A DNA stretch of 64,000 bases from a plasmid. Below, piece after piece: positions 9,415 through 63,828 of the stretch; position 1 is the first letter of the stretch, and each line of letters begins with the position of its first letter. A model generated the notes under the pieces. That model saw only the letters and a program-made list of their open reading frames with translations, was not told the origin of the DNA and did not search any database. The stretch lies in the sequence record NZ_CP035506.1; one strand, written 5' to 3'. The position numbers and the translations under genes were made by a program.

Positions 9415-9456
9415 ATAGTTAATTGTTCAAAAACATAATTTTCCTCTGGAGAGGCC

Positions 9457-14464: not shown

Positions 14465-14470
14465 GGGGGA

Positions 14471-47096: not shown

Positions 47097-47130
47097 CAGA
47101 ATGTCTCCGTCACGATCGTTTCCCGGCCTG

Positions 47131-48642
47131 TCAGAGGCCGATCTGTTCCTTGACCTGCTCGGCGAGAACGTCGAGCGGCTGATAATAGGTATGGATGCTC
47201 CAGACGATGGCCGGAACACAGATGAGAATGAGCAGGATCAGCGCCGCCTTGAGGCTCCGGTGCACCACGGCCTCCCGCGAGGAGCGGATGTAGGGAATCG
47301 TGGCGATCGGCATGATCCCGAGTTTCTTGACGATATCCTCCGGCCGGCGCGGCGAGCGGTTCAGGAGATCCATCAGCAGCACGAGAGCCAGACCGGCGAG
47401 AATGCCGGCGCCGAGACCCCCGCCCGCGATCAGAATCCGGTTGGGCTTGGCTGCGTTGCTGGGCACCACCGGCTGTTGCAGGATGGTGATGCGCTGCCCG
47501 CGCGCCTGGCGTTCGATCCTTTCGCCCGTGGAGGCGTCGAAAAGACGATTCTGGATCGAGGAATACTGGCTCTGGATATTGTCATAGTCACGCTGCAATG
47601 CAGCGAGAGCGACATTGTTCACCGAAGCGCGGCTGATCGCATCCTGAATGCGGCTGATTTCGCCCTGAAGCTGCTCTTCCTGCGCCTTGAGGGTACCGAT
47701 CCGTCCGTCGATCTCGGCCATCTGGGCCTTGAGCGGGTCGCTCTGGTCCGGCTGGGCCGTGCCGGCGATGGTGGCTTCAAGCTGGGCGATCTGGCTTTTC
47801 AGGATACGGATGCGGGGATTGTCGGGGGCATAGACGGCCAGCGCCTGGTTCAGCTGGTTCCGCATCTGGGCAAGCTGCTGTTGCTGGGGGCTCGCATTCT
47901 GCGAGGTGACCGCCTGGATCTGCCCGGTGGACTGGAAGACCTGAATGACGCGGGCCCGTTGTTCGGTCAGGCTCGAGATGTCCCGCCCAAGCTGGTCGTG
48001 CCGCGCCTGCATGGTGATGAGCTGTTGCTGGCGATAGGACTGATCTTCCGGGAGCGCGTCGGCATTCTCCGCCTTGAAGCGGAGGATCTTGGCGCTCTGC
48101 TCGTTCAGCGCGGTCGAGAGCCGTTCGACTTCCTGCTGGAAGAAGTCGTAGGTCTGGCCTGCCATGCCGGTGCGGGATTCCACGTCGTCCCGCTGGATGA
48201 CGCTCAGATATTCGTTGACCACGGCGGCCGCCAGCTGGGGCGTGGGCGCGTCGAAAGAGATGGTCATCTGCCTTGCGCCTTCGCGCGGGGCGATGATCTT
48301 CGTCGTCGTCCGGCTGTTCATGTAGCTCGCGATGTCGTCGGCGCTCATCTGCGCGATACCGGGAATGTTGACCCGGCGCGCCACGTCGATGACATTGGAG
48401 CGGGAGATCAGCCGCTGTTCGATGATTTGCAACCGTTCGAGCGGCGATGTCGTTACCGTGGGAGCGGCAAGACGCGATGGGATCTGCGGCTCTTCGACCA
48501 CGAAGCGGGTCGCGGAGACATAGGTCGGCGGCAGGGTCATCGCGATGATGATACCGATGGCGGTGATCGCCACGGCCGGGATCAGGAACCAGTGCAGCCG
48601 CCGCAGAAAGACGGAGGTGTAATATTTGAGAGTGGCCTTCAC
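47131..48642 (-). CDS. Polysaccharide co-polymerase (GumC/Wzz/ExoP N-terminal-like chain-length determinant, EpsF-like)
   Basis: N-terminal TM, a long periplasmic coiled-coil rich in Q/A/L, and a second C-terminal TM (GGGLGAGILAGLALVLLMD). Confidence 0.8.
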   Translation of the reverse strand: MKATLKYYTSVFLRRLHWFLIPAVAITAIGIIIAMTLPPTYVSATRFVVEEPQIPSRLAAPTVTTSPLERLQIIEQRLISRSNVIDVARRVNIPGIAQMSADDIASYMNSRTTTKIIAPREGARQMTISFDAPTPQLAAAVVNEYLSVIQRDDVESRTGMAGQTYDFFQQEVERLSTALNEQSAKILRFKAENADALPEDQSYRQQQLITMQARHDQLGRDISSLTEQRARVIQVFQSTGQIQAVTSQNASPQQQQLAQMRNQLNQALAVYAPDNPRIRILKSQIAQLEATIAGTAQPDQSDPLKAQMAEIDGRIGTLKAQEEQLQGEISRIQDAISRASVNNVALAALQRDYDNIQSQYSSIQNRLFDASTGERIERQARGQRITILQQPVVPSNAAKPNRILIAGGGLGAGILAGLALVLLMDLLNRSPRRPEDIVKKLGIMPIATIPYIRSSREAVVHRSLKAALILLILICVPAIVWSIHTYYQPLDVLAEQVKEQIGL

Positions 48643-49502
48643 GCCGTCGTCTCCTCTTCTTCCGGGCCAAGCGCGTTGGCACCGAAGAATACCTGATCTT
48701 CAATAACGTTCTGAACGGTTTCTTCCGTGACCTGTGGGGTTTCGCTGCTCCAGGCGTAAAGCATGCAGAAATCGCACAGTTGGTTGACGAGCCGCGGCAC
48801 GCCGCGCGTGGCGGCATGAATGGCGGTGGCCGCCCCGGGGGTGAATTCCGTCCCCGTGCCCCCGGCCTTCACCAGCCGATGGGCGATGTATCCGGCGACC
48901 GCATCGGCATCCATCGCGTTCAGATGGAAGGAGGCCGCCACCCGCTGCGCGAGCTGGCGCATGTTGGGATGCAGCACCATCGCCTTCAGCTCGGGCTGGC
49001 CGACGAGGATGAGCTGGATCAGCTCGTCCTTGCCGGAGTTGATGTTGGTGAGCAGCCGGAGTTCCTCCAGCCCCTCGATGGAGAGGTTCTGCGCCTCGTC
49101 GAAGATCAGGATCACCCGCCGCCCGGCGGCATATTCGGTGATCAGGAACTCCTGCAGCTTCTGGAACATCTGCACATAGGTCTCGCCCGGCGTGATCGGC
49201 ACGGCGAGCGCGTTCAGCACCCATTGCAGAAGCTCCCCCCGCCCGCCCTGCGCGTTGGAGACGAGACCGATGGTCACGTCCTCCTCCAGCCGGTTCAGCA
49301 GCTCGCGCAGCAGCGTCGTCTTGCCAGAGCCGATCTCGCCGGTGATGAGCGTGATCGGCGCGCGGGACAGGATGCCGAATTCCAGAACCGAGAAGGCGCG
49401 GCGATGCTGGGCCGACCAGTAGAGAAAGGAAGGATCCGGCAGCAGCGTGAAGGGACGCTCCCGAAGGCCGAAGAATTCCGCGTAAAGCTGCTGTGGGGCC
49501 AT
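48639..49502 (-). CDS. ExeA-like AAA ATPase (exosortase/PEP-CTERM-locus secretion ATPase type)
   Basis: Walker A GEIGSGKTTLLREL and Walker B VILIFDEAQNL. First gene of a tightly coupled minus-strand operon. Confidence 0.75.
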   Translation of the reverse strand: MAPQQLYAEFFGLRERPFTLLPDPSFLYWSAQHRRAFSVLEFGILSRAPITLITGEIGSGKTTLLRELLNRLEEDVTIGLVSNAQGGRGELLQWVLNALAVPITPGETYVQMFQKLQEFLITEYAAGRRVILIFDEAQNLSIEGLEELRLLTNINSGKDELIQLILVGQPELKAMVLHPNMRQLAQRVAASFHLNAMDADAVAGYIAHRLVKAGGTGTEFTPGAATAIHAATRGVPRLVNQLCDFCMLYAWSSETPQVTEETVQNVIEDQVFFGANALGPEEEETTA

Positions 49503-50070
49503 GAATTGCCTTCAGTTACTCTCGTCCGGACCTGGTCGGTCCCTTGCGGGATGCCTATAGCACTCCGCTCTCAAACAATCACCCTGCAACCGGGGGACGA
49601 AACCCCTCTGTGCAGATCTCTCCAATTTGCGGCAGGATGGGCACAATCCTCCGCCCCGTCGATTATGCCCGCTGCCTGACCGGAGGCCGAGAGTCCAGTT
49701 TCGTCGGTCCGGGGACGACAAGGCAAGAGGCGGTGGGGCATGTTCACGATTATGTTGAAGTCCCTTCGGCGGTTTAGCCGCTTCCGCGGCGACGCTTCAC
49801 CCTGATCTGCGAACAATGTGCGGCAAAGTGAAACAATTCGCAATGCTGCAACTGCACAATCAATGTGCACGTGTGAGAAAAACTGTATTTTCATGTTGTT
49901 GGGGGGTGGACGATTAACATTAATGCCCAAACTCCCTTTGCGGGCGCGAGAAAGAATGGTAAGCATTCTGTTAACGCACCGGCACCGCATATATTGGCAC
50001 GGCAGAATCGTGTTGCTCCACGCTGCAGGCTCTTCCTCCCCCCTGGGAGCCTCGGAAACGGGAACGGACT

Positions 50071-50758
50071 TATGACTGTACATTTCAATTCCGCTTCGCA
50101 GACAGGCCTTTCTTCCTCCCTCGATCAGGACAATCCCCTCGCCACCCCTTCGGGCATTTACCGGAATGGCGCGAAACGGACGATCGACATCCTCCTCATC
50201 GTCCTGGCGCTTCCCTTCGTCCTTCCCGTGCTTGCCATCATGGCGGGCTTCGTGATGATGGACGGGCATTCCCCCTTCTACCGTCAGGAGCGCGTGGGCC
50301 GCGGCGGGCGTCACTTCAGCCTGCTGAAGATCCGCACCATGGTTCCAAACGCCAAGGAGAAGCTCGAGGAATATCTCGCCTCCGACCCGGCCGCCCGCGC
50401 CGAATGGGACGAGACGCAGAAACTCAAGTCCGACCCCCGCATCACCTTTGCGGGCCGCATCCTGCGCAAGACCTCGCTCGACGAACTGCCGCAGCTCTGG
50501 AACGTGCTCAAGGGCGACATGTCCCTCATCGGGCCGCGCCCCATGATGCCGGAACAGCGCGCGCTCTATCCCGGCCAGGCCTATTATGAGCTGCGTCCCG
50601 GCATTACCGGATCGTGGCAGGTGTCGGACCGCAACGAAGGCTCTTTCGCGGGCCGCGCAAAATTTGATCTCGATTATTACAACTCCCTGTCTTTCGTAAA
50701 GGATTTGTCAATTCTCCTGCGTACAGTGGCTGTTGTTGTGCGGGGGACGGGATACTAA
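50071..50758 (+). CDS. Polyprenyl-phosphate sugar phosphotransferase (ExoY/WbaP C-terminal-domain type priming transferase)
   Basis: Single TM followed by the bacterial sugar transferase domain (PFYRQERVGRGGRHFSLLKIRTM ... DELPQLWNVLKGDMSLIGPRP). Confidence 0.85.
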
Positions 50759-50800
50759 CCTCGTCTCTGGAAAAATGCGTCCGGGATTGGTCCGGGCGCC

Positions 50801-53296
50801 ATGGACGAAGGTGAGGATGTGACGGGCAAGAAGGTTCTTCGGGGGCGGATCGGCCTCGGTATTGCGCTGGCGGCTGGTATCGGGCTGCTCGCGGGCTGCG
50901 AATCCTCCGAGGAAAAGGCGCAGAAACACTACGAATCCGGGCTTGCCCTGCTGGAGCAGGGCGATGTCAGCCGGGCGATGGTGGAATTCCGCAACGTCTT
51001 CTCTCTCGACGGAAATCACCAGGAGGCAAGGCAGACCTATGCGCGGCTCCTGCGGGAGCAGGGCAGCGTGCGGGAGGCCTACAGCCAGTATCTCCGCCTC
51101 GTCGAACAATATCCTGACAATGCAGAGGGCAACCGGGCGCTGGCGGAGATGGCGCTCGATGCGAGCAACTGGGACGATGCGGACCGTTACGGCCGCGTCG
51201 CGCTGCGTCTGGCGCCCGATGAGCCGGAGGTTCAGGGCATCGGCGCGATGATCGACTACCGGGCCGCGCTGATGAGCCGGGACGAGGCTGCCGGACAGGC
51301 GGCGCTGCAGCGTGCTCAGGCGCTGGTCGGGCAGCATCCCGAGCTTGTCGTCGCGCGGCGGGTGACGCTCGACAGTCTGGTGCGCAAGTCGGACTGGGAG
51401 GCCGTGCTGGCCTCGCTCGACGAAGGGTTGCAGCACGACCCCAACTCCTTCGAGTTTCAGCGGATGCGGGCCGCCGCGCTCTTCCAGCTTGGCCGGACCG
51501 ATGATCTTGAGGCGCAGCTGCGCCAGATGGCCCTTGCCAATCCCGAAGACACAGAGATCGAGAATTCGCTGCTCGGCCTGTTCATCAACCAGAAACGTCC
51601 CGAGGCGGCCGAGGAGTTTCTGCGCAGCCGCGTCGATCCGGCCTCCGCCGATCCGGCGGCGCGCCAGCGGCTGGTGTCCTTCATCGCCCAGACCCGCGGC
51701 ATGCCCGCCGCACGGCAGGAGATCGACCGCATCGTCGCCGGCAATCCGCCGAAGGTCGGTATCTACCGCACCATGCGCGCCGGGATCGATTTCGACGCCG
51801 GAAACCGCGATGGCGCCATGGCTGAAATGCAGTCGATCATCGACAGCAAGCCCGAACCGGATGTGCTGAACCAGGCGCGCGTGACGCTCGCGCGGATGAT
51901 GGCGCAGGTCGGCAACAAGGTTGGCGGCCGGGCTCTGGTGGAGGAGGTGCTCGCCTCCACGCCCAGCGATGTCGATGCGCTTAAACTCAAGGGCAACTGG
52001 CTGATCGACGACGACAGGACCGGCGATGCGCTGGTCGCGCTCCGCTCCGCCCTCGAATATGCCCCCCGCGATCCGCAGATCATGACGCTCATGGCCCGCG
52101 CGCATGAGCGGGACGGCAGCCGAGACCTGATGGGGGAGATGCTTTCCCAGGCGGTGGTCGCCTCCAGCCGGGCGCCGTCCGAATCGCTGCGGTATGCCGC
52201 CTTCCTCGAGCAGGACGGCAAGCACCTTCCGGCGGAGGATGCGCTGGTCAACGCGCTCCGGCTTCAGCCGCGCAACGTCGACCTGCTCTCCGCGCTGGGG
52301 CGCGTCTATGTCGCGATGAAGGACTGGCCGCGCGCCGATCATGTCGTGCGCACCCTGAAGGAGATCGGTACCGATCAGGCGGTCAACTCCGCCAATGAGA
52401 TCACGGCGAACCGGCTCGCCGCGCTGAACCAGGATCAGGAACTCGCCGCCTTCCTGCGCGGTCTGGCCGCGGAGGGGGACAGTGGTCCCGGCGTGGAGCT
52501 TGCCCTGATTCGCACCAGCCTGCTGCGCGGCGACACGCAGGAGGCCCTGCGCCAGGCCGATGCCCTGCTCGCCAAGACGCCCGACAATCCGACGGCCCTT
52601 TACCTCCATGCCGCCGTGCTGCTCTCTGCCGGGCAGAAGGAAGGGCTTGACGAGATGCGCGCCCTTACCCAATCGCATCCCGGTTTCGAGATGGGCTGGG
52701 CCGCGCTGCACAATGCGCTGCTCAGCACCGGCGACACGGAAGGCGCGGGCAAGGTGCTGGAGGCGGGTCTTGCCGCGATTCCGACGGCCCCCACGCTTTC
52801 CTGGATCAAGGCGGGCATTCTGGAGAAATCCGGCGATATCGACGGGGCGATCACTCTTTACGAGGCGATGTACGAGCGCGATTCGAATTCGCCGATCATT
52901 GCCAACAACCTCGCCAGCCTGCTGGCCGGTTACCGGAGTGACGACGCAAGCCTCGACAGGGCCTATACGGTCGCCCGGCGGCTTCGCGGAACGACGGTGC
53001 CTGCCTTCCAGGACACCTATGGCTGGATCGCCTACCGGCGCGGCAACTTTGACGAGGCGCTCAGCAATCTGGAGCCTGCCGCCCAGGGCCTGCCGCAGGA
53101 TGGGACGGTGCAGTATCACCTTGCCATGACCTATTCCGCGCTTGGGCGGAAGGATGAGGCGAAGCAGCTTCTCCTCCGGCTCGATGAGGGGGCCATTCCG
53201 CTTCCTGCCGATTATGCCGACCGGGTAAAGGCGGAGCTTGCCCGCCTTGCCGCGCCGGATGCGCCTGTGGTCTCGACACCCGAGGCGCGCAACTGA
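50801..53296 (+). CDS. TPR-repeat lipoprotein (PrsT-like, exosortase/PEP-CTERM system-associated)
   Basis: Lipobox LLAGC after a positively charged N-terminus, then about 800 aa of tetratricopeptide repeats. A GTG start just downstream of 50801 is possible. Confidence 0.75.
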   Translation: MDEGEDVTGKKVLRGRIGLGIALAAGIGLLAGCESSEEKAQKHYESGLALLEQGDVSRAMVEFRNVFSLDGNHQEARQTYARLLREQGSVREAYSQYLRLVEQYPDNAEGNRALAEMALDASNWDDADRYGRVALRLAPDEPEVQGIGAMIDYRAALMSRDEAAGQAALQRAQALVGQHPELVVARRVTLDSLVRKSDWEAVLASLDEGLQHDPNSFEFQRMRAAALFQLGRTDDLEAQLRQMALANPEDTEIENSLLGLFINQKRPEAAEEFLRSRVDPASADPAARQRLVSFIAQTRGMPAARQEIDRIVAGNPPKVGIYRTMRAGIDFDAGNRDGAMAEMQSIIDSKPEPDVLNQARVTLARMMAQVGNKVGGRALVEEVLASTPSDVDALKLKGNWLIDDDRTGDALVALRSALEYAPRDPQIMTLMARAHERDGSRDLMGEMLSQAVVASSRAPSESLRYAAFLEQDGKHLPAEDALVNALRLQPRNVDLLSALGRVYVAMKDWPRADHVVRTLKEIGTDQAVNSANEITANRLAALNQDQELAAFLRGLAAEGDSGPGVELALIRTSLLRGDTQEALRQADALLAKTPDNPTALYLHAAVLLSAGQKEGLDEMRALTQSHPGFEMGWAALHNALLSTGDTEGAGKVLEAGLAAIPTAPTLSWIKAGILEKSGDIDGAITLYEAMYERDSNSPIIANNLASLLAGYRSDDASLDRAYTVARRLRGTTVPAFQDTYGWIAYRRGNFDEALSNLEPAAQGLPQDGTVQYHLAMTYSALGRKDEAKQLLLRLDEGAIPLPADYADRVKAELARLAAPDAPVVSTPEARN

Positions 53297-53513
53297 GCAG
53301 CCGTTGCCGAAGATGGCCGCCGCAGAGGGCCACCGGAAAGGAATGACGGGCTTGCCCAGCGGAACTTTGCCGGGCAAGCCTTTTATTCCGGCGGATTTTT
53401 CTTCAGAACCGCGGCAGAAGTGTCGCAGTCCTCGCCTTTTGCGGAGCTCGGCTTTCCACCTGCCCGCAAACCTCCTATCCCTGATCGTAACCATTCCCCA
53501 ACGGGTGCGCCTG

Positions 53514-54167
53514 ATGTTCAGAACCTTGCTCGGGATCTTTGTTTCCCCCCTTTCACGTATCGCGGCGGTCGCCCTTGTGGCGGGCGGCGTCGCCGGCGGT
53601 TTCTCCGCGCCTGCCTCGGCCCAGAGCGGCTATCACCTGCGTCCGGGCGATGTGGTGCAGGTCGAGGTGCTCGACGATCCGAGCCTCAACCGTTCCGTGC
53701 TCGTCCTTCCCGATGGCAGCATCAGCTTCCCGCAGGCCGGAACGCTGCGCGCCAGCGGCCGGACGGTGGAGCAGCTGCGCTCCGCCCTGACGCAGGGCCT
53801 CTCGCCGAACTTCGCTGCGACGCCTACCGTCTATGTCACCGTGGGAAGCGTCGCGCCGCCGCAGTCCGCCGCCGCTGCCGCGGAAGGATTTCCCGTATAT
53901 GTGATGGGAGAAGTTAACGAACCCGGCCGCAAGGACATCAAGTCCGGCACCACGCTGCTGCAGTTCCTGGCCGAGGCCGGTCAGCTCAGCCGCTTTGCCG
54001 CGCGGAATCGGATCGAACTCCACCGTCAGGATCCCCGGACCAAGGCTGCGGCCGTCTATCTCTTCGACCTCGACCATGTGGGGGGTGGCCAGAACCGGAT
54101 CAGCGGCATGACCACCATCACCGAAGGCGATGTCATCATCGTCCCGCAGCGCCGGCTGTTCGAGTAA
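53514..54167 (+). CDS. Polysaccharide export protein, Wza-like (Poly_export + SLBB domains; EpsE-like)
   Basis: Signal peptide, then YHLRPGDVVQVEV ... PDGSISFPQAGTLRASGRTVEQLRSAL, the Poly_export motif. Start at ATG 53514. Confidence 0.75.
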   Translation: MFRTLLGIFVSPLSRIAAVALVAGGVAGGFSAPASAQSGYHLRPGDVVQVEVLDDPSLNRSVLVLPDGSISFPQAGTLRASGRTVEQLRSALTQGLSPNFAATPTVYVTVGSVAPPQSAAAAAEGFPVYVMGEVNEPGRKDIKSGTTLLQFLAEAGQLSRFAARNRIELHRQDPRTKAAAVYLFDLDHVGGGQNRISGMTTITEGDVIIVPQRRLFE

Positions 54168-54171
54168 GCAG

Positions 54172-55653
54172 ATGACCCCTGCCCGTTCCGCATGCCTCGC
54201 TTCCCTCAGCCGGGAGACCGGGCGGCCCCGTGCTGCGGCAGGCTTTCGCCGGCTGCCGCTCGCATTTCTTCTTCTCGCCGGAACGGCCCTTGTGCCTGTG
54301 GAGGCGCCGGCACAGGCAGCAGGCGATCTGCCGAACCCGCTGCTGACGTTCAGCTTTTCGTCCTCACTGCATGTGAGCGACAACTATGACCTGTCGGATG
54401 ATCCGTCAGGAACCACCACCTATGTCGATAACACACTCGGCCTCAGCTACCTGAGCGAGACGGATGTCCAGAAGCTCAGCCTCGCGGCGAGCGGGGTGCT
54501 GCGTCTGGCCGATTATCCGAGCGATGCGACGAACAGCGGCTACCAGACCGATTTCGACAACCAGACCCTCCGCTTCGGCTATACGCTGACGGGGGCGGAC
54601 AGCGAATTGACATCGTCGGCCTATTACAACCGCGCCGACATCGCCTTCTTCGATCCGTTCCAGCTCGTGCAGGAAAATATCGATCTCGAAGCGCAGGATC
54701 TTTCAACCAGCGACGGGTATCGGGAGATGATCCGCGCCAGTGTCGGCTTCCGCACCGGCATGTCCGGGCCGCTCAGCTTCAATGCGGGGCTGAGCGCCTA
54801 CAAGCGGAACTTCCTTGAGACGAGCGACACGAGCTTCGAAGACAACGAAACCTATACGGCGACGGCAGGTTTCGGCTTCCTGATCACGCCGACCACCCGG
54901 CTGACGCTGGACGGGTTGTATCGCGACTATTCCGCCGACGATACGGAGCAGACCGACCGGCAGACCCGCTCGCTCTCCACGGGTGCCGTGCATGAGGTCA
55001 GTACCGGGCTCACGCTCAATGGCTCCATAGGCTATCAGGAGATCGAGAGCGAGAAGACCGATCTCTCCGGCTACCGCGGAACAGAGCGGACGACCGGGGT
55101 CATCGGCACTCTCGGCGCCACGCAGGAGCTGACCAACGGCACGGTCGGAATCAGTTTCGACCAGAGCCAGAATACCTCCGGCAGCCGTTCCACCCTCCAG
55201 GTGTCCCGCGCAATGGACCTGCCGAGCGGCAGCCTTGCGCTCAGCCTCGGCGCCTCGCGGGGCGACAGCGGCAAGACGACCGCCATCGGGTCGATCACCT
55301 ACAATCATGACCTGGAGAATGGGAGCCTTTCCGCACGGCTGTCGCAATCGGTCAGCACCAACAGCGACGACGAAGAGGTGGAGGCGCGCAATTTCCTGCT
55401 CCGGCTATCGCATGAGCTGACCCCGGTTTCGGGTGTTTCGCTGAGCGTAAGCTATGCCGATCTCAACAACCTCCAGGATTCCGGGGGCGACCGGACGCGC
55501 AGTCAGATCCGCGCGGCCTATTCCCATGACCTGACCCGGGACTGGGAGCTTTCGGGCGGTTACGAATATACCCAGCTGGAGCGCCCCGCAGGAACGGCCA
55601 AGGAAAACGCCGTCTTCCTGACCATACAGCGCCAGTTCCTTTTCAGGCCCTGA
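54172..55653 (+). CDS. Predicted outer-membrane beta-barrel protein of the exosortase locus
   Basis: Signal peptide LPLAFLLLAGTALVPVEAPAQA. Alternating amphipathic beta-strand pattern rich in S/T/Y/G/N/D. Ends QRQFLFRP. Confidence 0.5.
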   Translation: MTPARSACLASLSRETGRPRAAAGFRRLPLAFLLLAGTALVPVEAPAQAAGDLPNPLLTFSFSSSLHVSDNYDLSDDPSGTTTYVDNTLGLSYLSETDVQKLSLAASGVLRLADYPSDATNSGYQTDFDNQTLRFGYTLTGADSELTSSAYYNRADIAFFDPFQLVQENIDLEAQDLSTSDGYREMIRASVGFRTGMSGPLSFNAGLSAYKRNFLETSDTSFEDNETYTATAGFGFLITPTTRLTLDGLYRDYSADDTEQTDRQTRSLSTGAVHEVSTGLTLNGSIGYQEIESEKTDLSGYRGTERTTGVIGTLGATQELTNGTVGISFDQSQNTSGSRSTLQVSRAMDLPSGSLALSLGASRGDSGKTTAIGSITYNHDLENGSLSARLSQSVSTNSDDEEVEARNFLLRLSHELTPVSGVSLSVSYADLNNLQDSGGDRTRSQIRAAYSHDLTRDWELSGGYEYTQLERPAGTAKENAVFLTIQRQFLFRP

Positions 55654-55847
55654 GCTCAGGACCTGAAAAGATCCGTGGGGCCGGGTGCGCTCTCACAACC
55701 ATGTGAATTTTCTGTACCATTCGCGGCCGGGTCATGGTTTTGCTTCGGTTTCCGCATGTGCAGCCTTATGTTATACAGGGACATACTTCCGGCGAATATG
55801 CCGGGCGCCCTGGGCTATCCCCGGCCACATTTGACTAGAGGATTTCC

Positions 55848-57452
55848 ATGACGGCCGCGAACGAGAATTCCCGCTCCTCCCTGGCGGCTGCGCTTCCCTC
55901 GGTGAACGCCCCCGGTTTCATGTGGTTCATTCTGCTTCTGGCCGGGTCGATCCCGATCTTCTGGATCGGCTTCGTCTCGTTGGCGAAGGCCTGGTCCACG
56001 CCGGAATACAGCCATGGGCCGCTCATTCCGCTGATCTCGCTCTACCTCTTCCTGCGGGAGCTGCGGCAGATGCCTCCGCCCGCGGCCGAGGTGCGGGACC
56101 GCTGGCCGGGGCTCCTCGTCATTCTGCTGGGCCTCGTGGTTGCGCTGTTCGGCAACCTCACCCGCATTCCCGACATCGTCACCTATGCGATGATCATCTG
56201 GGTGGGCGGTGTGGTCCTCACCGTCTTCGGCTGGGAGCGGGGCAAGCATCATCAGCTTCCTGTCCTGCACCTGATCTTCATGCTGCCGCTGCCGCAGTTC
56301 CTCTACTGGCACCTGACGATCTTCCTGCAGGGGATCTCGTCGGAGATCGGCGTGTGGTTCGTGCGCCTTGCCGGTGTGCCGGTCTATCTCGAAGGCAATG
56401 TGATCGACCTCGGGGTCTACAAGCTGCAGGTGGCGGAAGCCTGTTCGGGCCTGCGCTACCTGTTCCCGATCCTGAGCTTCACCTATCTCTTCGCCATCCT
56501 CTATCGCGGCCCCTTCTGGCACAAGGCTGTGCTGATGCTGTCGGCCGTGCCGCTCACCGTGCTGATGAACTCCTTCCGCATCGGGGTGATCGGGGTGCTG
56601 GTGAACTCCTATGGTATCGAGCATGCCGAAGGGTTCCTGCACTTCTTCGAAGGCTGGGTGATCTTCATCGCCTGTATCGGCATCCTGTTCCTGATGGCGA
56701 TGGGCCTGCAACGGCTGACGCGGAACCCGCTGCCGCTGGCGGAGGCGATCGACCTCGATACCCGCGGCATGGCGCCGCTCATGGGGCGCATCCTGTCGAT
56801 CCGCCCCTCGAAGGCGCTGGCGGCGGGGGCACTGCTGACGCTTGCCCTGTCGGCGGGCTGGGCGCTGCATGGCGGGCCGCAGGCCCAGCAGATGGACCGG
56901 GAGCCTTTCGCGCTCTTCCCCCGGCAGTTCGGGGAATGGTCGGGCGCGGCCTCCGGTCTCGACCCGGAGATCGAGCGGGTGCTGGCCGCGACCGATTACA
57001 TGAACGCCGCCTATACCGCACCGGGCGAGAAGGACTATGTGCATTTCTTCTCGGCCTATTACGAGAAGCAGACGGAAGGCGCCGGCATCCACTCGCCGGA
57101 AGTCTGTCTCCCGGTCGGGGGCTGGGAGATCTTCACCTTCCAGCCGCACGAGGTGAGCTTCCCGGGAACGCCCTACGGTACCTTCACCGTGAACCGGGCG
57201 GTAATCCAGAAAGGGTTGTCCAAACAGCTCGTCTATTACTGGTTCGAGCAGCGCGGCAAGCGGATGACCAACGATTATCTCGCCAAGGCCAGCGTCGTCT
57301 GGGACAGCCTGACCCGCGGCCGTACGGACGGGGCGCTGGTGCGCTATGTCACCCCGATCGGCACGAACGAGAGCGAGGCCGACGCCGATGCCCGCATTCA
57401 GCGGCTGATGGCGAAAAGCCTGAACGTCCTGCCCCGCTACATTCCGTTCTGA
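55848..57452 (+). CDS. Exosortase (EpsH/XrtA-like) fused to a C-terminal EpsI-family domain
   Basis: N-terminal 8-TM exosortase region ([30 protein letters not shown] with the conserved Cys, [10 protein letters not shown] with the conserved Arg). Then a roughly 230-aa periplasmic EpsI-like domain. 534 aa in total. Confidence 0.8.
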
Positions 57453-57475
57453 CTTGCTGAAGGCAAACTGAACAA

Positions 57476-57496
57476 CCCGGCTCCGGCCGGGTTTTC
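57476..57496 (+). terminator. Rho-independent terminator-like hairpin (CCCGGCTCCGGCCGGG + TTTTCT)
   Basis: GC-rich stem-loop followed by a T-run, 24 bp after the exosortase stop. Confidence 0.5.
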
Positions 57497-57784
57497 TGCG
57501 TTGCAGCATGTCGGGCGCAGCGAATCCCCCTTGTTCGGACACAACTTTCCAAAACGAAAGTATTCAACAGTTCACCTGCAAGCAGGTGGATGAAAGAGAA
57601 TTTTCAATCCTAAGACGAAGATGATTGCCTCTCCCATTTCGCGCCTCACGATAAAAGTTATTAAAAATAACACCTTTACGGCGAGCGCATCGGGCTATTC
57701 CAGCGAACAAGTTCAAGAAATTCCGATCTTTTGTGCCATATCGGGGACAAAGGCGCTCTCTTAGGGTCAGGACTCTTTCTCGGG

Positions 57785-58048
57785 TCATAGCCAGAACATG
57801 ACGGTTGCTGCGAGAGCGATGGCGGAAAGGAAGACCTTGGGGCACCTGTCGTAGCGGGTTGCGACGCGGCGCCAGTCCTTCAATCGCCCGAACATGATCT
57901 CAATCCTGTTGCGGCGTCTGTAGCGGCGCTTGTCATACTTGATGGGTATGCCGCGCGATTTCCGGCCGGGGATGCAGGGTTTTATCCCCTTGTCCTTCAA
58001 CGCTTCTCTGAACCAGTCGGCATCATAGCCGCGGTCCGCCAGCAGCCA
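57785..58048 (-). pseudogene. IS5-family DDE transposase, C-terminal fragment
   Basis: Translation LLADRGYDADWFREALKDKGIKPCIPGRKSR...RRRNRIEIMFGRLKDWRRVATRYDRCPKVFLSAIALAATVMFWL is typical of the IS5/IS427 group. The frame continues upstream across the Tn3 insertion. Confidence 0.75.
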
Positions 58049-58086
58049 GGGGGCTGATGCCGGAGGGGGCAGGATCCTACGTTAAG
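58049..58086. repeat. Tn3-family 38-bp terminal inverted repeat (left)
   Basis: GGGG...ACGTTAAG architecture. The tnpA stop codon lies inside the IR. Confidence 0.8.
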
Positions 58087-60967
58087 CCCTTTTCGGCCAC
58101 TTGTATTCGCCAGTGAGCAGGACATGGGCCCAACCGAGGGGCGAGATGTGCGCCAGAAGGTTCGGCGAACAGTCCAGGCCTTCGCGGCGGCGGCTGGCGA
58201 CGGCCTGGCCGAGATGCTTGGTGTTCCAGTAGATGACGATCGCGGCAAGAAGGTTCAGCCCGGCCATGCGGAAGTGCTGGGCTTCGGAGGTGCGGTCCCT
58301 GATCTCGCCCTGGCGGCCGATGCGGAGAGCGTTCTTCAGCGCGTGGTGGGCTTCGCCCTTGTTCAGGCCGATCTGGGCGCGGCGCTGCATGCCGGCATCA
58401 AGCAGCCAGTCGATGATGAAGAGCGTCCGTTCGACCCGTCCGATTTCCCGCAAGGCGACCGCCAGTTCATGTTGCCTCGGGTAGGACGCGAACTTCCGCA
58501 GGAGTTGGCTCGGCGGGATGGCTCCTGACGCCATGGTCGCCACGCTGCGCAGGATATCGGGCCAGTTCGCGGCGATGAGGGACTGCCTGATCTTGCCGCC
58601 GATCAGCCCTTTCAGCTCTTTCGGGCAGGCGGCCGGATCGAAGAGGTAGAGGCGCTTGGATGGCAGGTCGCGGATGCGGGGGATGAACTGGAAGCCCAGC
58701 AGGGCGGTGACGGCGAAGACGTGGTCGGTGAAGCCGCCAGTATCGGCATATTGCTCCCGGATCTTCTGCCCGGCGCTGGTCATCAGCAGGCCATCGAGGA
58801 TGTAGGGCGCTTCGTTCACGGTAGCCGGGATGGTCTGTGTGGCGAAGGGACCGAACTGGTCGGAGACATGGGTGTAGGCTTTCAGCCCGGGCTCATGGCC
58901 GTACTTGGCGTTGATCAGATTCATCGCCTCGCCCTGGCGTGTCGTCGGGAAGAACTGCCCGTCGCTCGATGCGGTCTGTCCGGCGCCCCAGAACTGCGCC
59001 ATCGGCAGTGCCGACTGCCCGTCGATCACCATGGCCAGGGCGCGGGCCATCGCCTCGCTTTCGACATGCCAGCGCGACAGGCGGGAAAGCTGGAAGAAGT
59101 CGTGCGTGTTCGTGGCCCCGGCCATCTTGCTGAGGCCGAGATTCAGCCCCTCGGCAAGCAACACGTTCAGCAGGCCGATCCGGTCCCTGCACGGCGCGCC
59201 GGTGCGCAGATGCGTAAAGGCCTCGGTGAAGCCAACCTCCGCATCCACTTCGAGCAGGAGATCGGTGACCCTGACTTCCGGCAGGCGGCCATAGAGGTCG
59301 AGCACCAAGGCGTCGGCTTCCTCGGGAACCGCCGCAGCCAGCCGGTCGATTTTCAAGGTGCCGTCCTCGATGGAGCCTCCCGGCATGGTCCCGGCCCTAG
59401 CCGCACGCGCCAGGCGATGCAGGGCGTCAGCCATTCGGGCTTTGCGGTCGGCCAGCCAGGTTTCCGGCTCGAACGGCATGGCCAGCCTCGGCGTGGCGCG
59501 GGCGACGTCGACCGGGACCAGCGCTTCCTTCAGGTCGCCATACCTGCGCGAATGCGCCAGCCAGATATCACCGGAACGGAAGGCTTCGCGCAGATGGAAC
59601 AGGACCGCGACCTCCCATATCCGGTGCTCATCTTCGCCATCCAGGTGGCGGTGCCACTTCGAGGCGCGGCGCAGAAAGGTCAGCGGCCGGACGTCTGGTG
59701 TCGCCGTGCCCGCGATGACCGCGCTTGCCGCCAGCAGCGGCTCCGCCACGGGCGCGGCACAGATGTCGAGTACCCGCAGCATGCGCGGCGCATAACGCCG
59801 GAAGCGATGATATCCGTGACCGACATGCGCCAGCGGATCAGCGGCAAACGTGTCGGTCAGTTGAGCGGCCGTGGCGACAAGCCCCTTGAGGGATATCCAG
59901 CCGCCGGCATTGCCGACGGCCTCTTCGAGAGAGGCCCGATCCTCATGCGCTTCCAGGAGCGCCGCTCCCAATGTCCTGAAGGATTGCAGGGTGTCCTTCA
60001 GCGCCGATCTGGCATCGTCCATCCGGGCGTCACATCGTGACTTCGCCTCGCGCCAGGTCTTGCCCACGATGCGGTCATGGGTCTCGACGACAGCGTCAGC
60101 AATGGCGCAGCGCCATTCCAGCGCGCAGACCGCAAGGATGGCGAGGCGGCGGTCACCCGAGATATCCCTCAGATCGCCTGCGAAGTATCGCTCTCCCTGC
60201 CGACGAAGGCGGGCAACGCGGTGTGGCGGCACATCCGCCAGAATGCCCCGGTCCAGCGCCAGCGCGCGCAGGTATTCCAGCCGGTCCAGAAGGCGGTTCA
60301 TGTCGGCCGAATTCTGCCCGGTTTCGAACTGGCGCAGCCAGACGAACCGCGTGACCGAGCCGCCCGCATCTTCGGTCAGGAGGGCATCGAGACGTGCTCG
60401 CATGGCATCGTCCAGCCGGCCACCGATCCGGGCGTCGATCCGGCGCTCGGCCGCGACAAGCGCCTCCGCGCAAAGCCGCTCGATGACCGTGATCCCCGGG
60501 AAGATGGTCTGGGTTGCCCGGCACTGCTCGACGAAGCGCCGTGCCAGATCCTCGTTCGACCGGGCGGCTTCGGCGGCATCCTCAAGCCATATTTTCAGGT
60601 CACGTGCCCCACGGCCCGCGAACATCTTGTAGCCATAGATCTCGCGCAAGGCGGCCAGGTGCTCATGCCGGGTCTCTTCCCGGGTCGCATACCCGGCCAG
60701 ATCGTCAGGCCTCATCCCGAGCTGCGCTGCCAGAAAGCGCGTGACCGCCAGCGGAATGACCTCGCCCGGCGCCAGCAGCCGCCCCGGATACCGAAGCGCG
60801 CAGAGCTGCAGGGCGAAACCGAAGCGGTTGTGCGGACGACGACGGGCGCGGACGATCTCCAGATCGTCGTCTGCCAGCGTGTAGTGGCGCAGCATCGACG
60901 CGTCATCGGTCGGCAGGTCGAACAATGCCGCCCTTTGCCGGGCGGTCAGGATGCTGCGTCTTGGCAT
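58082..60967 (-). CDS. tnpA: Tn3-family transposase TnpA
   Basis: 961 aa. N-terminus MPRRSILTARQRAALFDLPTDD (DUF4158-like) and a large C-terminal DDE domain typical of Tn3 TnpA. Confidence 0.9.
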   Translation of the reverse strand: MPRRSILTARQRAALFDLPTDDASMLRHYTLADDDLEIVRARRRPHNRFGFALQLCALRYPGRLLAPGEVIPLAVTRFLAAQLGMRPDDLAGYATREETRHEHLAALREIYGYKMFAGRGARDLKIWLEDAAEAARSNEDLARRFVEQCRATQTIFPGITVIERLCAEALVAAERRIDARIGGRLDDAMRARLDALLTEDAGGSVTRFVWLRQFETGQNSADMNRLLDRLEYLRALALDRGILADVPPHRVARLRRQGERYFAGDLRDISGDRRLAILAVCALEWRCAIADAVVETHDRIVGKTWREAKSRCDARMDDARSALKDTLQSFRTLGAALLEAHEDRASLEEAVGNAGGWISLKGLVATAAQLTDTFAADPLAHVGHGYHRFRRYAPRMLRVLDICAAPVAEPLLAASAVIAGTATPDVRPLTFLRRASKWHRHLDGEDEHRIWEVAVLFHLREAFRSGDIWLAHSRRYGDLKEALVPVDVARATPRLAMPFEPETWLADRKARMADALHRLARAARAGTMPGGSIEDGTLKIDRLAAAVPEEADALVLDLYGRLPEVRVTDLLLEVDAEVGFTEAFTHLRTGAPCRDRIGLLNVLLAEGLNLGLSKMAGATNTHDFFQLSRLSRWHVESEAMARALAMVIDGQSALPMAQFWGAGQTASSDGQFFPTTRQGEAMNLINAKYGHEPGLKAYTHVSDQFGPFATQTIPATVNEAPYILDGLLMTSAGQKIREQYADTGGFTDHVFAVTALLGFQFIPRIRDLPSKRLYLFDPAACPKELKGLIGGKIRQSLIAANWPDILRSVATMASGAIPPSQLLRKFASYPRQHELAVALREIGRVERTLFIIDWLLDAGMQRRAQIGLNKGEAHHALKNALRIGRQGEIRDRTSEAQHFRMAGLNLLAAIVIYWNTKHLGQAVASRRREGLDCSPNLLAHISPLGWAHVLLTGEYKWPKRA

Positions 60968-61132
60968 GGCGATCTTTCAGGAAATCGTGATGGACGACCG
61001 TCCGTAAGGGGATCGGTGAGCGGACATGTGTCGAGAGGGTTGGGAGCGGTAAGGAAACCGCACTCCATCCTATCTCGTATAGATGGTACGATTTGATTCG
61101 CACATGCCGCCCCTTATCCGTACACTCGCTAC
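60968..61132. promoter_or_regulatory. Putative res site / divergent promoter region between tnpA and tnpR
   Basis: Position between divergently transcribed tnpA and tnpR, as in Tn3-family elements. Sub-sites not resolved by eye. Confidence 0.4.
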
Positions 61133-61720
61133 ATGACCGTGACCAAAATTGGCTATGCCCGCTGCTCCACCGACCGTCAGGACCTGACAGCGCAACGTGC
61201 TGCCCTTGCAGAGCTTGGGGTCACCGTAGACCGCATCTACACGGACCATGGCCTGACCGGCACGAACCGCGCCCGCCCCGGTCTCGACCAAGCGCTTGCT
61301 GCTGTGCGAGAAGGCGACGTGCTGGTCGTGCCGAAACTCGATCGCCTTGCGCGCTCGGTCCCGGACGCACGGGCCATCGCGGATCAGTTGGAAAAGAAGG
61401 GCGTCAAGCTTGCCCTCGGCGCATCGGTCTACGATCCGACCGACCCGATGGGAAAGATGTTCTTCAACATCCTCGCCACCTTCGCCGAGTTCGAGGCCGA
61501 CCTCATCCGCATGCGTACCCGCGAAGGTATGGCCATCGCCCGAGCCAGGGGCAAGCTTCGGGGAAAGCAGCCGAAACTCTCGGAAAAACAACAAAAAGAA
61601 CTGAGCCGGATGCACGCCTCCGGCGAATATTCCATCAGCGATCTCGCTGAGCTCTTTGCCGTCTCAAGACCGACCGTCTACAGGACGCTGCAGCGAAATC
61701 CGGCCAAAACTCAGCCTTAG
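61133..61720 (+). CDS. tnpR: Serine recombinase / resolvase TnpR
   Basis: N-terminal catalytic motif IGYARCSTDRQDLTAQ and C-terminal HTH. The stop codon lies within IR-R. Confidence 0.9.
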   Translation: MTVTKIGYARCSTDRQDLTAQRAALAELGVTVDRIYTDHGLTGTNRARPGLDQALAAVREGDVLVVPKLDRLARSVPDARAIADQLEKKGVKLALGASVYDPTDPMGKMFFNILATFAEFEADLIRMRTREGMAIARARGKLRGKQPKLSEKQQKELSRMHASGEYSISDLAELFAVSRPTVYRTLQRNPAKTQP

Positions 61721-61753
61721 CGTAGGATTCTGCCCCCTCCGGCATCAGACCCC
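61716..61753. repeat. Tn3-family 38-bp terminal inverted repeat (right)
   Basis: The reverse complement matches IR-L at 34 of 38 positions. Confidence 0.8.
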
Positions 61754-62264
61754 AGCCAGTCCGCCTTTGGCAAGCTGCCCAGAAGTGCTGCGGCACCCGT
61801 GTAGTCACTGACCTGACCTGCGGTCACGAAGAAGCGGATTGGCCGGCCATCAGCATCGGTGACGGCGTGCAACTTGGTGTTCATGCCGCCCTTGGTTCGG
61901 CCGATCAATCGGCCCCTCTGATCGTTGGCTCCCCCTTTTTCGCTCGCAGGCTGGTCGCCGTGCGATGCGCCTTGAGATAGGTCGCGTCGATCATCACCGT
62001 CTCCGGAACTGCCGACTCTGCCGCCAGGCCGAGCATCATCCGGGCGAAGACACCCCTGTCGCTCCACCGCTTCCAACGGTTGTAGAGCGTCTTCGACGGG
62101 CCATACTCCTTGGGAGCGTCGCGCCATCGCAAACCATTGCGATTAATGAAGATAATGCCGCTGAGAACGCGCCGGTCATCAACACGCGGCTTGCCATGGC
62201 TCTTGGGAAAGAAGGGCTCCAGGCGCGACATCTGCGCCTCCGTCAGCCAAAAGAGGTTGCTCAT
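61754..62264 (-). pseudogene. IS5-family transposase, N-terminal two-thirds (orfA + start of orfB, with a putative -1 frameshift site)
   Basis: orfA MSNLFWLTEAQMSRLEPFFP... and orfB ...GMNTKLHAVTDADGRPIRFFVTAGQVSDYTGAAALLGSLPKADWL. The reverse strand has a GAAAAAGGGGG slippery-like motif near 61931-61942. The frame joins fragment 57785-58048 exactly once the TSD is removed. Confidence 0.7.
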
Positions 62265-62474
62265 TCATCGGTCTCCTTGCGGAGCCTGAATCATGCTGAA
62301 AGCGCAAGATCAATGGGTCCTGACCCTAAGCGCAAGCAGCTGAGTTTTATTAATAAACTAGGAAATATTAAAAAAACCACTGTCACGCCGCATCGCAACA
62401 TGTTAATAATTGACATAAGCGTGATGAACTCGGCTCCGGCCCCTGAGCCGATTGGCAGAATTATGGAGAGAAAC

Positions 62475-63026
62475 ATGTTGAAGAAGGTTGTTACGGCTGC
62501 CCTCATCGCCGCGGCCTCCGCTGCCTCGGCAAATGCTGCTGTCATTTATGCAAGCAGCGTGGTTTCGGCTAAACAGAAGGGCTATGTTGCGCCGGTGCGC
62601 AGCAACCCGATCGCAGCAACGGGTGCCGAGGATGGGAGCTTCTACTCCCTCGGCTTCGGTGGCAGCATCGTGCTCGGCTTCTCGAGCCTGGTGAGCGGCG
62701 CTGGGAAGGTGTTCGAAGTCACCAACCTCCCGCGGGAAACCTATATCGAGAGCGCGATCTTCTCGGTCAGCCTCGACGGAAAATCCTGGACCACTCTGGG
62801 AGAATACTCCAACCAGGTCAGCTCGCTCTATTCGGCGACGCCGTTCCTCTTCCTCAAGGTGGAGGATACCAGCCCGGTGATCGCCGGCCATGGCCGTGAC
62901 GGCTATGACATCGACGCCATCGGCTTCGAAGAATATGTCGCCGCGGTTCCGCTTCCGGCGGCGGGCCTGCTGCTGATCGGTGGTCTGGCCGGCCTGGGTG
63001 CCATGAAGCGCCGCAAAGCGGCCTGA
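62475..63026 (+). CDS. Secreted protein with C-terminal VPLPA-CTERM (PEP-CTERM-variant) sorting signal; candidate exosortase substrate
   Basis: Signal peptide MLKKVVTAALIAAASAASANA. C-terminus VPLPAAGLLLIGGLAGLGAMKRRKAA is a VPLPA motif followed by a TM helix and a basic tail. GGAGAG RBS 4 nt upstream. An AT-rich promoter region precedes it. Confidence 0.7.
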   Translation: MLKKVVTAALIAAASAASANAAVIYASSVVSAKQKGYVAPVRSNPIAATGAEDGSFYSLGFGGSIVLGFSSLVSGAGKVFEVTNLPRETYIESAIFSVSLDGKSWTTLGEYSNQVSSLYSATPFLFLKVEDTSPVIAGHGRDGYDIDAIGFEEYVAAVPLPAAGLLLIGGLAGLGAMKRRKAA

Positions 63027-63216
63027 GCCTCAAGAAACGATTTTCGGAACGCCGGTGCGATTGCGCCGGCGTTTTGCTTTCCGGGTTGCTTCCAAGGTTT
63101 CCCTTGCATCCTGGGCGTTGCTGGATCACCTCTCAGGCATCATGCGGCCCGACAAACCCCTTCCCGCCCGTCAGCGTCCCCGCTTCCCGCGGCGGGAGGG
63201 CATTCTGACAGACCGA

Positions 63217-63828
63217 ATGCGCGCCATGCCGGTGGTGCTCGTGCTGTTCGTGGCCTGCCTGATCCCGGAACTCATTCTTTCCGGAGCTGATTACGGGCTT
63301 TGGGGCGATCCCGGCTGGCGGCTCTGGGCCTGGCAGCATGGCGGCTTCTGGACGGGGCTTCTGGGCAACTGGCGGCCCAACTATGCCGCGCAACCCTGGC
63401 TCATGTTCCTGACCTACGGCTTCCTGCACGGGGGGGTGATCCATTTCGGGGTGAACATGCTCACCCTGTTCTCTCTTGCGCCACCGCTGGTGGAGCGGAT
63501 GGGACAGGGACGGTTCCTGCTGCTCTACATGGCATCCATGATCGGTGGCGGTCTGGGCTTTGCGCTGCTGTCCCAGTCTCCGCAGCCGATGGTGGGGGCG
63601 TCGGGGGCGCTGTTCGGGCTGGCGGGCGCGGTCATGGCGCTGAGCTGGCAATATCTGCGGGCACGGGGGGAGAGCCTCAGGCCGGTGATCCGGTCCCTTC
63701 TGTGGCTTGCCGGGCTGAACCTGGTCCTCTGGTGGGCGATGAGCGGGATGTTGGCCTGGGAAACCCATCTGGGTGGTTTCGTCGTCGGCTGGCTCATGGG
63801 CCTGTGGCTGGTGAGGGATGGGCGATAG
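63217..63828 (+). CDS. Rhomboid-family intramembrane serine protease
   Basis: Six TM helices, catalytic GASGALFGL (GxSG) and a downstream His in ETHLGGFVVGW. Start placed at ATG 63217; the ORF is open to 63055. Confidence 0.7.
   Translation: MRAMPVVLVLFVACLIPELILSGADYGLWGDPGWRLWAWQHGGFWTGLLGNWRPNYAAQPWLMFLTYGFLHGGVIHFGVNMLTLFSLAPPLVERMGQGRFLLLYMASMIGGGLGFALLSQSPQPMVGASGALFGLAGAVMALSWQYLRARGESLRPVIRSLLWLAGLNLVLWWAMSGMLAWETHLGGFVVGWLMGLWLVRDGR

Follow-up and report, generated by a model that had tools for sequence, protein, structure and literature searches.

A plasmid-borne XrtD/VPLPA-CTERM sorting locus and a rhomboid protease subfamily linked to it

The exosortase XrtD and the secreted proteins that bear a VPLPA-CTERM signal make up a protein-sorting system that was reportedly defined by Haft, Payne and Selengut (J Bacteriol, 2012) and is represented by the curated models TIGR04152 and TIGR03370. 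Here we analyze such a system in a 64,000-nucleotide stretch of DNA from a plasmid (sequence record NZ_CP035506.1; hereafter, the window), where it lies among genes for the export of exopolysaccharide (EPS). The correspondence with the described system includes the full-length match of an exosortase with a fused EpsI domain, the tail of its client protein, a Rhodobacterales host and the EPS neighborhood, and the Prokaryotic Genome Annotation Pipeline (PGAP) names homologues in the same manner on at least 20 plasmids; nothing at the locus differs in kind. Two particulars set it apart, namely the displacement of the client gene by a Tn3-family transposon nested in an IS5-family insertion sequence (IS5::Tn3) and a rhomboid protease partner that is absent from the annotation names we saw. 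The locus is an XrtD/VPLPA-CTERM sorting and EPS-export cluster of standard type, already catalogued. Taken as a whole, it very probably forms one end of a large EPS island whose components are of Wzx/Wzy type, the end devoted to protein sorting and export, on a ~119-kb plasmid of Haematobacter massiliensis or a very close relative.

Other described systems share parts of this architecture. XrtA/PEP-CTERM systems (EpsH, PrsT; PMC1569441) follow a common logic in which the exosortase is embedded among EPS genes, and the accessory set found here is homologous to theirs: ATPase, chain-length determinant, tyrosine kinase, TPR lipoprotein, short exporter and barrel. In contrast to XrtA loci, the present locus uses a VPLPA rather than a PEP signal, carries EpsI fused rather than separate, includes a rhomboid and encodes accessory proteins whose scores do not reach the curated cut-offs; its immediate surroundings showed no PrsK/PrsR regulator pair. 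The composite EpsY/EpsX translocon of Myxococcus xanthus (PMC9601211, PMC9603273, PMC12819527) likewise involves a short Poly_export plus SLBB OPX protein encoded immediately before an outer-membrane barrel, whereas the barrel here has 22 predicted strands rather than 18 and the pairing is a predicted one. In rhombosortase/GlyGly-CTERM systems (TIGR03902; PMC3237569), too, a rhomboid gene lies beside a gene for a protein that has a motif, a transmembrane helix and a basic tail at its C-terminus. The rhomboid described here nevertheless reaches only 31.6 bits against the rhombosortase cut-off of 84, possesses its own NWRPNY..QP loop and accompanies a VPLPA instead of a GlyGly tail at a locus where an exosortase is already the presumed sorter. 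Finally, the flocculation-type PEP-CTERM protein PepA (NF033554; PMC9850573) is also a small secreted protein with an exosortase signal encoded with EPS genes; the client of the present locus matches its model weakly (E 0.007, 16 bits against a cut-off of 80) and has a predicted CBM32-like fold.

XrtD, its client and the insertion between them

Because the window is GC-rich (61-71%), the real coding frames were picked by GC content at third codon positions (GC3), and profile scans were run against NCBIfam and Pfam. The plus-strand gene at 55848-57452 encodes XrtD, the VPLPA-CTERM-specific exosortase, as a 534-residue protein with a fused C-terminal EpsI domain. It scores 710 bits against TIGR04152 (cut-off 400), aligning end to end, with protein residues 45-533 covering model positions 1-486 of 486. 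Pfam Exosortase_EpsH (PF09721) occupies residues 33-284, and the EpsI domain is recognized as DUF3485 (PF11984) at 327-531 (E 4e-56) and as TIGR02914 at 355-531 (E 1e-39). The catalytic motifs ACSGLR (C199, R203), NSFR (N241, R244) and HFFEGW are at least 97% conserved in an alignment of 78 relatives. Since TIGR04152 already spans the EpsI domain, the fusion defines the XrtD family and is not peculiar to this locus; EpsH-EpsI fusions were described by Haft et al. in 2006 (PMC1569441).

Among genomes sampled at one per species we found 373 relatives, the best 80 of which are nearly all from Rhodobacterales and 65-100% identical. The protein is 100% identical in H. massiliensis CCUG 47968 and in Haematobacter genomosp. 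1 H2240, and the plasmids on which PGAP applies the label 'xrtD' include those of Jannaschia sp. CCS1, Roseobacter denitrificans and R. litoralis. In 38 of 60 loci xrtD is immediately preceded by genes for the TPR protein, OPX protein and barrel, and 36 of these loci also contain the priming sugar transferase gene and the divergent ATPase gene. A VPLPA-type gene occurs within 10 kb of xrtD in 42 of 80 loci.

In the window, XrtD co-occurs with one such client. The gene at 62475-63026 (plus strand) encodes a small secreted protein of 183 residues that consists of a signal peptide, a ~130-residue domain predicted to form a CBM32/discoidin-like beta-sandwich, and a C-terminal VPLPA motif followed by a transmembrane helix and KRRK. 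Its tail, VPLPAAGLLLIGGLAGLGAMKRRKAA, matches TIGR03370 with 39.7 bits (cut-off 25.35) over residues 158-181 of 183. The Sec signal peptide, MLKKVVTAALIAAASAASANA/AV, with cleavage at ...ASANA/AV, was read from the sequence and is conserved in 46 homologues. A 99%-identical protein is already named 'VPLPA-CTERM sorting domain-containing protein [Haematobacter massiliensis]' by NCBI. Members of the client family are ~180-200 residues long, and the tail is kept in all displayed but one of the 46 aligned sequences, the window protein included.

An AlphaFold2 model of the client computed from the 46-sequence alignment (pLDDT 86.2) is a beta-sandwich whose best matches in the PDB are CBM32 modules and F5/8-type-C domains, among them 2jda (E 3e-5) and the CBM32 of AlyQ, 7d29 (E 1.6e-4). 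One client homologue carries a precomputed Pfam match to F5_F8_type_C. The client is thus predicted to be a small CBM32-like sugar-binding module.

In this strain a 5-kb gap separates xrtD from its client, and it results from a nested insertion. An IS5-family (IS427-type) insertion sequence (IS), 853 bp long when restored, occupies 57764-62326 on the minus strand and is interrupted by a Tn3-family transposon; the fragments of its transposase match NF033580 with E 2e-31 and 4e-16. Terminal inverted repeats of the IS5 element lie at 57760-57778 and 62312-62330, and its 'TA' target duplication is found at 57762-57763 and 62327-62328, such that the window reads CTCTTA-[IS]-TAAGCG. The Tn3 element (58049-61753, minus strand) encodes TnpA (58082-60967, minus strand; NF033527, 1063 bits) and TnpR (61133-61720, plus strand; Resolvase, E 9e-42), is bounded by 38-bp inverted repeats at 58049-58086 and 61716-61753 that are 92% complementary, and is flanked on both sides by the 5-bp target duplication AGCCA. 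Its removal in silico restores an intact 853-bp IS5 element with frameshifted orfA/orfB and a continuous transposase. The missing C-terminus of the IS5 transposase was recovered by this joining of the two IS halves; the open reading frame (ORF) at 57564-57845 (minus strand), a candidate for that part, matches no family and was rejected. The IS5-family element entered the spacer between xrtD and the client first, and the Tn3-family transposon entered the IS later. The Tn3 element occurs as 100% identical copies on three H. massiliensis plasmids and at 99.9% identity on Salipiger plasmids. It is the sole high-identity match of the whole 20-kb locus in PLSDB, which places the plasmid itself outside that collection.

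H. massiliensis CCUG 47968 retains the empty site, CTCTTAAGCG, and in that strain the client start codon follows the xrtD stop codon by ~460 bp. The order xrtD, client, rhomboid is also found in H. missouriensis and in Falsirhodobacter flavus (51% protein identity in Falsirhodobacter). The empty site and the order kept in other species identify the client as a native neighbor of xrtD and not a passenger of the transposon. An IS element and a transposon do form one flank of the client gene, as they would if it were an unrelated passenger of mobile elements that came to lie near xrtD by chance. That explanation is effectively refuted: the gene lies outside the inverted repeats and target duplications of both elements, the strain with the empty site has it shortly after xrtD, the same order recurs in the other two species, and VPLPA-type genes accompany xrtD in about half of the loci counted above.

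A different concern is that IS5::Tn3 has uncoupled or silenced the client and rhomboid unit in this strain by cutting it off from regulatory DNA upstream, leaving a decaying locus that would serve poorly as a model. The 4,563 bp of mobile DNA lie between AT-rich halves of the spacer and end 147 bp upstream of the client start codon, and the same spacer is interrupted differently in H2240, with an IS1380-like transposase and an extra gene. We nonetheless judge this explanation improbable. All ORFs are intact, their products share 99-100% identity with the proteins of insertion-free strains, and the 147 bp of native upstream DNA, including an AT-rich, promoter-like stretch, are still joined to the client. 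Moreover, a GC-rich hairpin followed by TTTTCTG lies just 3' of the xrtD stop codon (57474-57493, plus strand; a terminator scan flagged the hairpin on the opposite strand). It is weak evidence for a possible terminator, and it suggests that the client was transcribed as a unit of its own even before the insertion.

The H2240 spacer (locus 11600-15100) contains extra DNA that differs from that at 57453-62474 of the window. One ORF within it ends in a VPLPA-like tail, …AAVPVPAALPLLGAGLGALAFLRRRRARA, giving at least two clients at that locus; another, of 451 residues, is by eye perhaps an IS1380-type transposase, which is a guess. Because the insertion in H2240 is a different one, the spacer between xrtD and the client seems to accept insertions repeatedly. 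Within the window, a regular-expression search covering all six frames revealed no VPLPA-type tail besides that of the client.

These results bear on a preliminary description of the locus, made from the sequence alone. The conserved exosortase Cys and Arg that it reported are C199, R203 and R244, and its VPLPA-CTERM client is what the family model recognizes. The exosortase-EpsI fusion it described is present, although as a family trait known since 2006 and not as a special feature; the 5-kb distance from exosortase to client is correct for this strain but is not the native spacing; and the pairing of one exosortase with one target holds only within the window; in the sister strain H2240, another VPLPA-type gene occupies the corresponding position. 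The identity of the system was correctly stated. Its presentation as something special was not supported, given the automatic annotation of xrtD elsewhere and the existing NCBI name of the client.

A rhomboid subfamily associated with XrtD

The gene that follows the client, as the preliminary description had it, encodes a rhomboid intramembrane serine protease (63055-63828, plus strand; Pfam Rhomboid, PF01694, E 2e-28) whose true start is likely near 63217. Its catalytic motifs, FLHGGVIHFGVNM, H-x4-H-x3-N, GASGALFG and AWETHLGG, are kept, and S126, H181, H68, H73 and N77 (numbering of alignment A2) are invariant among 21 diverse members of the subfamily. The NWRPNY..QP loop motif is specific to this subfamily. 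The window protein falls outside the rhombosortase model TIGR03902 by the score given above.

The association of this rhomboid with XrtD was examined from both sides. In 40 of 73 loci a rhomboid homologue is encoded downstream of xrtD in the same orientation and no more than 3.5 kb away, directly adjacent in 23 of them; within 10 kb, one is present in 48 of 80. In six loci where the rhomboid is displaced from xrtD, it adjoins VPLPA-CTERM genes. The operon still runs TPR, OPX, barrel, rhomboid on three plasmids that carry xrtD at another place, R. denitrificans pTB2, Jannaschia p1 and Rhodovulum pRGUI04; of these three, only the Jannaschia locus shows the priming transferase gene upstream. Rhomboid homologues were found on only 16 of 72,556 PLSDB plasmids. 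On 14 of these xrtD is present as well, and for a fifteenth it resides on a sister plasmid of the same strain. In a reverse test on metagenome contigs, seeded with the rhomboid alignment, ~33 of the 37 subfamily members with enough flanking DNA lie near XrtD, barrel, OPX or TPR genes, compared with 0 of 27 generic rhomboids. Sequence motifs and gene neighborhoods mark the rhomboid as a member of a distinct subfamily that is catalytically intact and tied to XrtD clusters.

The names attached to these proteins in their source records are all generic: 'rhomboid family intramembrane serine protease', 'GluP' or 'peptidase S54'. We found no link between rhomboids and exosortases in the searchable literature, which excluded the 2012 paper defining XrtD, so that a mention there is possible. 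On pRGUI04 of Rhodovulum sp. P5 (locus 9349-10923), a gene for xrtE ('exosortase E/protease, VPEID-CTERM system') lies within 3 kb after the TPR, OPX, barrel and rhomboid genes; with xrtD elsewhere, this plasmid has two exosortase types and one export operon beside which the second stands.

What the rhomboid cuts is a matter of conjecture. Rhomboid substrates usually have an N-out/C-in helix rich in Gly and Pro, and the VPLPA helix, itself N-out/C-in and rich in both residues, fits this general expectation. The rhomboid, and not XrtD alone, might process the VPLPA-CTERM helix, either as the enzyme that releases the client, in the way rhombosortase serves GlyGly-CTERM proteins, or through a second cut on the stub that XrtD leaves. 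The tight linkage of the subfamily to xrtD, the operons that still end in barrel and rhomboid where xrtD has moved away, the displaced rhomboids beside VPLPA-CTERM genes, the plasmid co-occurrence, the reverse test and the invariant catalytic Ser/His with H-x4-H-x3-N all favor such a role. An intramembrane protease working with an exosortase also has precedent in XrtE, annotated as 'exosortase E/protease', and in the EpsH-CAAX protease fusions noted in PMC1569441. We regard this explanation as possible but on balance somewhat unlikely, given that ~40% of xrtD loci have no rhomboid inside 10 kb, that the curated names of TIGR04152 and TIGR03370 pair VPLPA-CTERM with XrtD, and that the rhomboid fails the rhombosortase model. 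In addition, its linkage could reflect quality control of the EPS machinery or processing of another component. Cleavage of the helix that links the exosortase and EpsI domains was ranked low by reasoning, as this helix has the opposite (N-in) topology.

With XrtD retained as the sorting enzyme, we put forward only tentatively, and with more reservation than conviction, the proposal that the dedicated rhomboid is a core part of the XrtD/VPLPA-CTERM system, a third component that has yet to be named and that would act on the same C-terminal anchor as the exosortase.

The export machinery and its plasmid context

The remaining machinery is encoded by two divergent operons, and all of the named export-locus genes were found as high-GC3 frames. 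The minus-strand operon begins with an ExeA-like AAA ATPase (48639-49502), which matches TIGR03015 (E 1.3e-82, 277 bits, cut-off 324.5) and Pfam AAA_22. A GumC/Wzz-like polysaccharide co-polymerase or chain-length determinant (47131-48642; TIGR03007, E 1.9e-53, 181 bits, cut-off 279) is also encoded on this strand, as is a stand-alone BY-kinase, a tyrosine autokinase (46242-47219; TIGR03018, E 1.5e-26, 93 bits, cut-off 230.65; TIGR01007, E 1.8e-23). The distal genes, together spanning 43872-46273 and with GC3 values of 0.84 for a 490-residue polytopic membrane protein (43872-45344) and 0.78 for a glycosyltransferase with GT2 family matches (45341-46273), complete the operon. The polytopic protein has no family match in Pfam or NCBIfam and, from its sequence, is possibly Wzy-like. 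A further candidate kinase gene, the ORF at 49571-50314 (minus strand), has low GC3 and no family match and was judged spurious.

The plus-strand operon opens with a small polyprenyl-phosphate sugar-phosphate transferase, the priming enzyme (49994-50758; Pfam Bac_transf, E 1e-58), whose matches to TIGR03022 and TIGR03025 are confined to the C-terminal domain and whose true start is likely the ATG at 50072. A PrsT-like TPR lipoprotein (50801-53296) matches TIGR02917 (E 6e-68, 229.5 bits, cut-off 312) and many TPR families of Pfam, and has the lipobox GLLAGC. The next gene encodes a short periplasmic OPX protein (53238-54167) with Pfam matches to PF02563 (Poly_export) and to PF10531 and PF22461 (SLBB); TIGR03027 (E 3e-26, 92 bits, cut-off 180) and the EpsY model NF041843 (E 3e-17) are matched below their cut-offs. 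Its likely true start is at 53514, which would yield a protein of ~217 residues with a Sec signal peptide and no lipobox. With Poly_export and SLBB as its only domains and no Wza_C, it corresponds to a Class 3 OPX protein as defined in PMC9603273.

The gene between the OPX protein and xrtD (54130-55653, plus strand) encodes a predicted 507-residue outer-membrane beta-barrel, confidently modeled by AlphaFold2 with 22 strands (pLDDT 82.6, pTM 0.75). Foldseek matched this model exclusively to outer-membrane barrels in the PDB, the best being 22-strand TonB-dependent receptor barrels (TMq ~0.53). The protein is 28% identical (E 8e-28) to a Jannaschia protein named 'outer membrane beta-barrel protein' by PGAP, and UniRef names an identical protein as a TIGR03016-family PEP-CTERM-associated outer-membrane protein. 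The barrel is predicted without a plug, and its 22 strands make it larger than the EpsX/AlgE-type barrels described for short OPX proteins, which have 18. It is the likely partner of the short OPX protein.

Across both operons, the accessory proteins are homologous to XrtA-system families with E-values from 1e-26 to 1e-82, and all five fall short of the XrtA-system cut-offs. Scores below curated equivalog cut-offs allow function to be carried over at the level of homology only.

Plasmid partition genes open the window: a parA/repA-like gene at 95-1489 (plus strand; TIGR03453, E 4e-59) and a parB/repB-like gene at 1845-2984 (plus strand; TIGR03454, E 1e-13). The ParA protein is 79% identical to that of R. 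denitrificans pTB2 and 80-84% identical to those of D. shibae and C. sphaeroides plasmids, and NCBI labels a protein identical to the rhomboid '(plasmid) [Haematobacter massiliensis]' in a 118,868-bp record; together these support a plasmid origin. A 650-residue ORF of high GC3 adjoins parAB (3263-5215, plus strand). It has no Pfam or NCBIfam match and no tblastn match in the 72,556 PLSDB plasmids, and it matches nothing that would make it usable as a replication marker.

Between ~8 and 45 kb the window contains glycosyltransferase genes together with genes for ManC, a Wzx-type flippase, beta-helix proteins, and acyl- and pyruvyl-transferases. An ABC exporter is encoded at 40552-42342, and the 3' end of its gene is overlapped by ~500 bp by a 676-residue ORF (41820-43850, minus strand) that has high GC3, is rich in Arg, Ala and Ser and matches no family; as a full-length gene this ORF is probably not genuine. 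Two pairs of large paralogues stand in this region. The first comprises proteins of 987 residues (17313-20276, plus strand) and 829 residues (26714-29203, minus strand) that share the C-terminal motif ...IHAGG.YE.W.QDPLGFGFPVVGM.D..G.WR.LFE and have no Pfam or NCBIfam match. The second comprises proteins of 737 residues (20888-23101, plus strand) and 764 residues (29300-31594, minus strand) with Beta_helix matches, one also with Laminin_G_3, and no obvious signal peptide. Both pairs may be secreted polysaccharide-modifying enzymes. The lower GC content of positions 6001-8000 and 20001-24000 (0.57-0.60, against 0.64-0.71 for most of the window) suggests mosaic, horizontally acquired pieces in the EPS island.

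Beyond the right end of the window (locus 1608-11618), an epimerase/dehydratase gene is followed by genes for a 358-residue Wza, the low-molecular-weight phosphatase Wzb, a 725-residue Wzc, a WecA-like transferase, a GT1 glycosyltransferase and EpsG. This second, classical Wza/Wzb/Wzc cluster after the rhomboid places two export systems side by side on the plasmid.

The gene set listed in the preliminary description (ATPase, co-polymerase, BY-kinase, transferase, TPR protein, Wza-like exporter, barrel, exosortase, client and rhomboid) was recovered in full, and the plasmid origin it assumed agrees with the ParA and NCBI evidence. Its interval of 48639-63828 takes in most of these genes but misses the co-polymerase and the BY-kinase, which lie to the left of its start, and includes ~4.6 kb of mobile DNA (57764-62326) that it did not mention. 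The exosortase, EpsI and VPLPA-CTERM models that it proposed as checks were matched, whereas TIGR02917, TIGR03015, TIGR03018 and TIGR03027 were matched below their cut-offs. The locus is not compact as had been claimed, since EPS genes stretch from ~8 kb across the rest of the window and past its right end.

A working model and its implications

The gene content suggests how the locus might operate. EPS repeat units would be primed by the small transferase, flipped, and polymerized under the control of the co-polymerase and BY-kinase, and the polymer would leave through the OPX/barrel pair, with the TPR lipoprotein and ATPase acting as accessory factors, as in XrtA systems. The client would cross the inner membrane by Sec and stay tethered there by its C-terminal helix until the Cys/Arg/His site of XrtD cuts at VPLPA. 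Once cut, the CBM32-like domain would probably be passed by XrtD to an acceptor and come to lie at the cell surface or in the EPS matrix, decorating or binding polymer at the cell surface. The rhomboid might clear the stub left by the XrtD cut or offer an alternative route for shedding the client. The analysis establishes the identities of the genes, their motifs and synteny, the anatomy of the mobile elements with the empty site, the predicted folds and the linkage of the rhomboid to the cluster; each of the steps above, from priming to client transfer, is inferred by homology.

Several points weigh against parts of this reading of the locus as a standard XrtD/VPLPA-CTERM system. A literature search found no experimental work on XrtD or VPLPA-CTERM, in agreement with the statement in the preliminary description that VPLPA-CTERM systems of Rhodobacterales are essentially uncharacterized by experiment; VPLPA cleavage, the acceptor and the final location of the client are inferred by analogy with other exosortases. 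The CBM32 assignment derives from a predicted model with moderate scores (TM ~0.5-0.6, E 3e-5). The accessory proteins, by their sequence scores, are homologues presumed to work alike and are not XrtA-system equivalogs, and the predicted barrel has 22 strands where characterized EpsX-type partners have 18. Finally, the IS5::Tn3 insertion may alter expression of the client in this strain.

XrtD, its EpsI fusion and VPLPA-CTERM are covered by curated models and automatic public annotation, and nothing about them is new in kind; the conserved rhomboid partner is the one part of the locus that goes beyond standard annotation. The practical value of the locus lies in the fact that no exosortase of the XrtD class has been studied experimentally. 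The strain bearing IS5::Tn3 and the strain with the empty site form a near-isogenic natural pair, and a small client with a predicted sugar-binding fold adds to that value.

The part most worth following up is the rhomboid. To our knowledge, most bacterial rhomboids have no known substrate. If the rhomboid does prove to be a third component acting on the client anchor, VPLPA-CTERM sorting would be a two-protease intramembrane pathway in which the rhomboid takes the role held in XrtE by a fused CPBP-type protease domain. The prevailing picture of exosortase sorting would then change, and bacterial rhomboids would gain a defined class of substrates.

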